In this document: one piece after another, positions 42,015 through 42,574 of the stretch
How the letters are laid out: each line of letters opens with the position of its first letter
Position numbering within the stretch: position 1 is the first letter of the stretch
Assembly (NCBI RefSeq): GCF_041248615.1
Contig: NZ_CP158426.1
Reading direction: 5' to 3' (one strand)
DNA: 64,000 nucleotides
Source of the DNA: Escherichia coli
GTDB taxonomy: Bacteria; Pseudomonadota; Gammaproteobacteria; Enterobacterales; Enterobacteriaceae
Translations under genes and position numbers: made by a program
The notes under the pieces: generated by a model
The model's input: only the letters and a program-made list of their open reading frames with translations
What the model was told of the DNA's origin: nothing
Database searches by the model: none

Positions 42015-42574
42015 AGGATGAATTCCTTTTCATAATCCCGATACGTTGATAATTACAGTACAATCATTTTTTTTATGAATGATTAGAGTGGGGGATATCC
42101 GCCAAATAAATTTGTTAGAGAATTTTTGTATTAATGGGTTGTGCGAATATGTTTTTAAGTGTCAAACAATTTTAGTTTGTAGCCAATAAATAAATTGATC
42201 GCGCGGATTTTAATGATCGGTGTCAATCAATGTCAAATGTTTCACCGGATAAAGGCCCGGGGCAGGGAAAGATAAATATTCAGTTGAGTGATGTTTTATT
42301 GCGAATTTTGCGATGCTGATAGAAAAATTTAAATAATTAATTATGTTTCAAGCATTGATATGCGGCAATTCATTGTTAATATTGATACATCATTCTTTAA
42401 TTTGTACCTGATTTTCAGAATTTAGCCTGCTCCGGGCGCTCAGAAGTGTAGGTGGAGTTAAATATATAATGTTAAGAACGTTATAAATATTCGATCTCTA
42501 CAACAGGCTCCTGCATGTGCCAGCAGGAGCGAGTAAATCGTGAGTGGCTGTAATTACAGCGACGAGAAAGGAAC

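Follow-up and report, generated by a model that had tools for sequence, protein, structure and literature searches.

The AT-rich yibL-sadB intergenic region of Escherichia coli is a composite control region of a chromosomal UpaG/EhaG-type adhesin operon

Organization of the yibL-sadB-adhesin locus

The window analyzed here, a stretch of 64,000 nucleotides of Escherichia coli DNA, contains a long intergenic region (the gap) between yibL and a sadB-like gene, bounded by the yibL stop at 42575 and the start of the sadB-like open reading frame at 42014, with both genes on the minus strand (Table 1). The sadB-like gene is the first of an operon, and its product, a DUF3251 lipoprotein, is named 'SadB/YajI family lipoprotein' by RefSeq in some genomes; the function of SadB is taken from Grin et al. 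2014 (PMC3953254). It is followed by a gene for a YadA-like trimeric autotransporter adhesin and then by lldP. The adhesin is the positional ortholog of UpaG, EhaG, and SadA, and because the CFT073 gene at this position is annotated as 'trimeric autotransporter adhesin UpaG', the sadB-adhesin operon is identified as the E. coli UpaG/EhaG locus and the positional ortholog of Salmonella sadBA. The size of the adhesin varies: the gene is 4320 bp (1439 aa) here and 5256 bp (1751 aa) in NZ_OW967178.1, a 936-bp difference that presumably lies in the repetitive passenger domain, and the product ranges from 1289 to about 2044 aa across other strains.

The operon ends in a strong intrinsic terminator, and an 81-nt segment including it has a fold z score of -3.2; the terminator sequence is also found after yibL in K-12. 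A stem-loop also follows yibL at the upstream end of the gap, with an 8-bp GC-rich stem (alifold about -16.6 kcal/mol) that is kept in all Escherichia alleles. Its counterpart in Pseudocitrobacter has one compensatory pair and a proper U-tract (UAAUUUUGUG), and other genera have a different, unrelated hairpin at the corresponding position. In this strain the U-tract is poor (CUGUUGUAG), but it is better in other alleles (CUGUUUCAG), and a terminator scan of the region made no call at this hairpin, which is probably a weak intrinsic terminator or a 3' stabilizer of yibL mRNA.

The first-pass annotation described about 560 bp of AT-rich non-coding DNA at this position, and both the limits and the length are exact, with a GC content of 0.35 versus 0.497 for the window. 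Composition is uneven along the gap, with GC contents of 0.29 in the predicted leader (see below), 0.335 in the upstream DNA, and 0.53 in the 74 bp adjoining yibL. The AT-richness is not extreme, as 7.8% of the 560-bp segments across the 64 kb equal or exceed it; these are mainly in the waa lipopolysaccharide (LPS) genes and in a tract after yibH. GC content in the window is lowest (down to 0.27) in two tracts, one at ~13040-18700, where the waa LPS-core and O-antigen ligase genes are located, and one at ~49120-51500, which comes after yibH and adjoins an Imm57-family immunity gene. At the sadB locus, the AT-rich tract extends into the first ~300 bp of sadB (GC content of 0.38 to 0.40), so that it spans about 41700-42500, or ~800 bp in total including the start of sadB. 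Of the ~45 intergenic gaps annotated over 50 kb, this one is the longest (the next are 536, 457, and 412 bp), and none of the E. coli genomes listed has a RefSeq annotation inside it. Positions 41900-42700 are 100% identical to the E. coli chromosome NZ_OW967178.1.

Table 1. Features of the yibL-sadB-adhesin locus, in minus-strand order (window coordinates)
Feature	Coordinates	Strand	Description	Basis
yibL	42575-42937	-		NCBIfam equivalog, E 8e-57
yibL-sadB intergenic region (gap)	42015-42574	-	560 bp, GC 0.35	Sequence, flanking ORFs
yibL 3' stem-loop	42508-42531	-	GCUCCUGC-8 nt-GCAGGAGC	Fold z = -3.4
Conserved block A	42410-42424	-	Footprint TAAATTCTGAAAATC, consensus GGCTAwAwTCyGAAww	12-genome alignment
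Block B position	42379-42389	-	yATATAya elsewhere, diverged here (GTATCAATATT)	
Conserved -35 block	42226-42244			12-genome alignment
P1 -35 hexamer	42231-42236	-	TTGACA	Conservation, promoter score
P1 -10 hexamer	42207-42212	-	TAAAAT, 18-bp spacer; predicted start ~42199-42201	Start predicted from hexamers only
Conserved block with -10 hexamer and predicted start site	42199-42220			12-genome alignment
Predicted sadB mRNA 5' leader	42015-42200	-	~185 nt, GC 0.29	
Weak AU-rich inverted repeat	42062-42084	-	AATCATT-N9-AATGATT	About -3.6 kcal/mol
Shine-Dalgarno sequence	42024-42028	-	AAGGA, 9 nt before sadB ATG	Read from sequence
Conserved ribosome-binding/start block	42010-42033			12-genome alignment
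sadB-like gene	41331-42014	-	DUF3251 lipoprotein, 227 aa, first gene of operon	
Adhesin gene	36968-41287	-	YadA-like trimeric autotransporter adhesin, 1439 aa, 43 bp after sadB	
Strong intrinsic terminator ending operon	36906-36944	-	13-bp stem + UUUUCUUU	

Origin and distribution of the locus

The adhesin had been taken to be horizontally acquired, a view that the comparative data do not support. The gene order mtlR-yibT-yibL-gap-sadB-adhesin is common to five genera, being found in E. coli, E. marmotae, E. fergusonii, Salmonella enterica, Citrobacter, Pseudocitrobacter, and Enterobacter, and the GC content of the adhesin gene (0.52) is genome typical. Of the 5426 complete E. coli genomes, 1880 have the gap, in every case on the chromosome, and three allele classes can be distinguished (at least 99%, 90 to 97%, and about 70% identity). 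There are no plasmid copies, the two matches labeled 'plasmid' being 4.9-Mb chromosomes, and with no meaningful repeats in the gap either, an origin from a mobile element or plasmid was rejected. The absence of the locus from K-12 is a clean 5.6-kb deletion, with homology ending at the yibL stop codon (42573/42574) and at 36946/36947, and a 95-bp REP-containing filler is present instead. The latter endpoint (36946) is just upstream of the operon terminator, and this terminator, which closes the adhesin operon here, thus serves yibL in K-12. The shared gene order, the lack of plasmid copies, and the adhesin GC content together indicate that the locus is ancestral and variably deleted, the same conclusion that Grin et al. 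2014 (PMC3953254) reached for its ancestry and loss, including the loss from K-12.

Several other genomes illustrate further variation around the locus. In E. coli NZ_CP195347.1, just 129 bp of the gap is left beside yibL, followed by IS1 and a fimbrial usher/chaperone cluster, and sadB and the adhesin gene are absent. The gap is only ~70% identical between this strain and ST131, an unusually deep divergence within E. coli, and the yibL DNA of the two is 94.8% identical (84% at third positions) with identical proteins; this divergence suggests that old alleles of the adhesin region may have been exchanged by recombination. SadB-type genes of the Escherichia group also appear in metagenome-assembled (MAG) contigs filed as Oscillospiraceae, Collinsella, and Bacillota (87%, 99%, and 69% identity, respectively), the first two of which also carry yibL with a product identical to the E. 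coli protein. These three are most likely mis-binned enterobacterial contigs.

A conserved predicted promoter and the sadB leader

Orthologous gaps were compared among E. coli alleles, E. marmotae, E. fergusonii, S. enterica, Citrobacter, Pseudocitrobacter, and Enterobacter. They are 443 to 560 bp long with GC contents of 0.29 to 0.35, with the exception of Enterobacter wuhouensis (284 bp), and their sequences are close to saturation, as the window and Salmonella share ~50% identity in the gap versus 84% in yibL. Mean column identity in a 12-genome alignment is 0.66, and only four non-coding blocks reach at least 0.84: block A, a block around the -35 hexamer, a block with the -10 hexamer and predicted start site, and the ribosome-binding/start block.

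The second and third of these blocks correspond to P1, TTGACA-18-TAAAAT (42236-42207), which scores highest among the promoter-like sites of the region (11/12 consensus matches). TTTGACA at the -35 position is invariant in 12/12 aligned genomes, both hexamers are invariant or nearly so, and the pattern TTGAC(A/C)-17/18-TAnnAT is present in 16/17 genomes of Escherichia, Salmonella, Citrobacter, and Pseudocitrobacter. Promoter prediction, proposed earlier as a check on this region, thus yields a near-consensus sigma-70 site that is widely kept. P1 is therefore the predicted sigma-70 promoter of the operon, and its hexamers would place the transcription start near 42200 and give a leader of ~185 nt. 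In this allele, the -10 hexamer lies between two GATC sites (42195-42198 and 42214-42217). Neither site is conserved, as other E. coli alleles have lost both, so Dam-dependent control is unlikely and phase variation of the Ag43/pap type was rejected.

The description of the entire gap as a long AT-rich leader consequently needs qualification. The gap is AT-rich, but the part predicted to be transcribed with sadB makes up no more than roughly a third, and the remainder consists of upstream regulatory DNA and the yibL 3' end. In other genera the predicted leader is 163 to 245 nt, measured from the end of the -10 hexamer to the ATG, and the AAGG of the Shine-Dalgarno sequence is invariant in the alignment. 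A four-codon mini-ORF in the leader (42046-42060, minus strand; ATG ATT GTA CTG TAA) has its start and stop column in 8/9 Escherichia alleles, with a TAA/TGA swap; it lacks a Shine-Dalgarno sequence and is probably a chance occurrence. A k-mer search with 7-mers found CATTCAT(A) in 9/10 representative gaps, a count reached in 1/200 Markov shuffles. It is often inside ATTCA...TGAAT dyads of variable spacing and is at non-homologous positions relative to the promoter across genera; the copy here (42078-42084) is within the leader inverted repeat.

Probable H-NS silencing of the operon

As the composite control region of the sadB-adhesin (UpaG/EhaG-type) operon on the chromosome, the gap is ordinary and of a known kind, and within it we favor, with somewhat better than even confidence, the reading that the near-consensus P1 is silenced by H-NS acting on its AT-rich flanks. 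Read along the minus strand, such a region would run from the GC-rich yibL hairpin through ~270 bp of AT-rich upstream DNA, which contains block A, to P1, the leader, sadB, the adhesin gene, and the terminator. Being so close to consensus, P1 would be active by default, and the AT-rich DNA on both sides of it (the ~800-bp tract that includes the sadB start) would serve as a platform for H-NS, which would coat or bridge P1 and shut it off. It is proposed that the operon is cryptic in culture because these flanks let H-NS silence P1.

H-NS effects in hns mutants can be indirect, and expression of EhaG and UpaG is reportedly enhanced in such mutants, a result said to be that of Totsika et al. in 2012 in Appl Environ Microbiol 78:2179. 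In two papers that cite Totsika et al. 2012, UpaG is named among the autotransporters of uropathogenic E. coli (UPEC) that are repressed by H-NS (PMC5012682), and H-NS is said to regulate trimeric autotransporters (PMC6956023). The CFT073 gap is 92.7% identical to the one described here and has the same P1 and block A, so the upaG result should apply to this locus. The earlier proposal that the promoter is H-NS silenced is thereby upheld in part, by the AT-rich promoter flanks and by the reported H-NS repression of the orthologous upaG and ehaG; direct binding of H-NS to the gap DNA and the mode of silencing are putative. H-NS silencing at this locus is plausible, and H-NS repression of upaG and ehaG is already reported in the literature and is not new here.

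Sequence features of the gap bear on this reading in different ways. The H-NS nucleation motif TCGATAAATT has four matches with two mismatches in the 560 bp versus ~0.6 expected from the window average (~6x density), and two of the four overlap the predicted start site; the window-wide count (73) equals the expectation by shuffle (70.8), however, and AT content by itself may account for the local enrichment. Predicted curvature, which had been suggested as a further check, is average overall: in a wedge model, the gap mean is at the 34th percentile of the window and there are local peaks only, at ~42122, 42300, and 42410. Intrinsic curvature was therefore rejected as a distinguishing feature of the gap.

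Observations in Salmonella are indirect but fit control by H-NS dosage. In an anaerobically grown fur mutant, hns is up 3.1-fold and STM3690 (sadB) is down 4.2-fold, and STM3690 is listed as Fnr regulated and Fur responsive (PMC3212961). SadA was not detected in culture (PMC3953254).

Conserved upstream blocks and alternative readings

H-NS does not account for blocks A and B, which may signal either another specific factor or a second promoter. An alternative to the H-NS reading is that control is mainly by such a factor, an activator or anti-silencer acting at blocks A and B, or by an activator-dependent upstream promoter giving a leader of ~400 nt, with H-NS as background; we regard this as unlikely on balance, although it could operate alongside H-NS silencing of P1. 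In its favor is block A, one of just four conserved non-coding blocks, whose TCYGAA core is present in 16/17 genomes of four genera at 147 to 184 bp upstream of the -35 hexamer. The spacing between the two clusters at 147, 157 to 159, 170 to 172, and 179 to 184 bp, roughly 11-bp steps, but this pattern represents about four independent lineages. In many genomes the hexamer just ahead of block A looks like a -10 element (TATAAT in C. youngae and TAAAAT in several), although there is no matching -35 element ahead of block A. Block B follows at a roughly constant distance, ~28 nt downstream of block A in most genomes, but it has diverged in this allele, where it is a weak feature that may be non-functional, and E. 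wuhouensis has none of these elements.

The identity of a factor acting at block A was approached by comparison with known sites. By eye, block A has no convincing fit to the consensus sequences of CRP, FNR, Fur, IHF, Cra, SlyA, ArgR, sigma-54, or sigma-32, and it was rejected as a sigma-E site, as TCTGA is present but without a GGAACTT -35 element. The listing of Salmonella sadB as Fnr and Fur responsive (PMC3212961) would favor a specific regulator and prompted a search for FNR and CRP sites, but none is conserved anywhere in the gap. The earlier label of a regulator-dependent promoter is accordingly not borne out, with no known activator site found in the gap. Tentatively, block A and the ATATA block could nonetheless be the site of a dedicated activator or anti-silencer, or part of an activator-dependent second promoter, and if so, the block A element would activate the cryptic sadBA/upaG operon in response to some natural cue.

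Improbable, and considerably more so, is a cis-acting regulatory RNA in the leader, such as a riboswitch, an RNA thermometer, or an sRNA docking site, that acts on sadB translation. At ~185 nt the leader is long for E. coli, and its inverted repeat (42062-42084) persists in Escherichia and Pseudocitrobacter with loops that differ in length, a pattern more in line with a hairpin than with a site for a dimeric protein. This hairpin is worth just about -3.6 kcal/mol, however; it is shifted in ST131 and lost in the minimum free energy (MFE) fold of E. marmotae, and the leader as a whole has no significant structure, folding no better than shuffled sequences (z = +0.27). The leader is also unalignable between genera except at the ribosome-binding site, and no Rfam family matches, whether in the window (E <= 1) or in any of five orthologous loci (E <= 0.5).

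The gap was described at the outset as having no ORF of note, and this stands: the longest is 36 aa, and in a six-frame comparison of 12 alleles/species no ORF of at least 18 aa is kept with protein-like substitutions, nor was a conserved gene found there. A concealed small gene, sRNA gene, decayed gene, or mobile-element remnant in the gap is very unlikely. Several ORFs of 20 to 36 aa are present, among them a TTG-initiated ORF of 22 to 24 aa in all E. coli alleles, and gene calling assigned a 64-aa gene to the gap in Salmonella. However, the 22- to 24-aa ORF overlaps the P1 hexamers, initiates ahead of the predicted transcription start, and varies at about half of its residues from allele to allele, the 36-aa antisense ORF is present only in close alleles with nearly all changes non-synonymous, and the Salmonella ORF is frameshifted in subsp. 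salamae. The gap also has no Rfam match, notable repeats, or plasmid copy.

Relationship to other adhesin loci

Silencing of P1 by H-NS, the reading preferred here, can be set beside several known systems. The closest is upaG of CFT073, which is at the same position (yibL-gap-sadB-adhesin-lldP) and has a gap of 558 bp with a GC content of 0.357 and the same TTGACA-18-TAAAAT; it differs in having a slightly different gap allele and an adhesin of 1778 aa (CFT073 annotation) rather than 1439 aa. For ehaG of enterohemorrhagic E. coli (EHEC) O157:H7, the upstream region, like that of upaG, is reported to be H-NS repressed (Totsika et al. 2012). Salmonella sadBA has the same gene order and position and is likewise cryptic in culture (PMC3953254), with a gap of 487 to 526 bp (GC content of 0.31 to 0.32) and a TTGAC(A/C)-17/18-TAnnAT promoter 196 to 241 nt before sadB; its gap is only ~50% identical to that here, with nothing recognizable beyond the promoter, block A, and the ribosome-binding site. 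UpaC, UpaH, and F9 fimbriae, cited in PMC5012682, are similar in having AT-rich DNA around a competent adhesin promoter that is silent in laboratory culture. Several of those loci are in strain-specific islands, however, whereas the sadB-adhesin locus is ancestral to the Escherichia-Salmonella-Citrobacter group and variably deleted.

Little is at stake in the region as such, which is the expected regulatory DNA of a characterized adhesin operon. What is added is a conservation-backed promoter prediction at 42236-42207, an ancestral locus with a deletion in K-12, and a conserved upstream footprint, and block A could guide the search for the signal that turns on adhesins of the SadA/UpaG/EhaG type.
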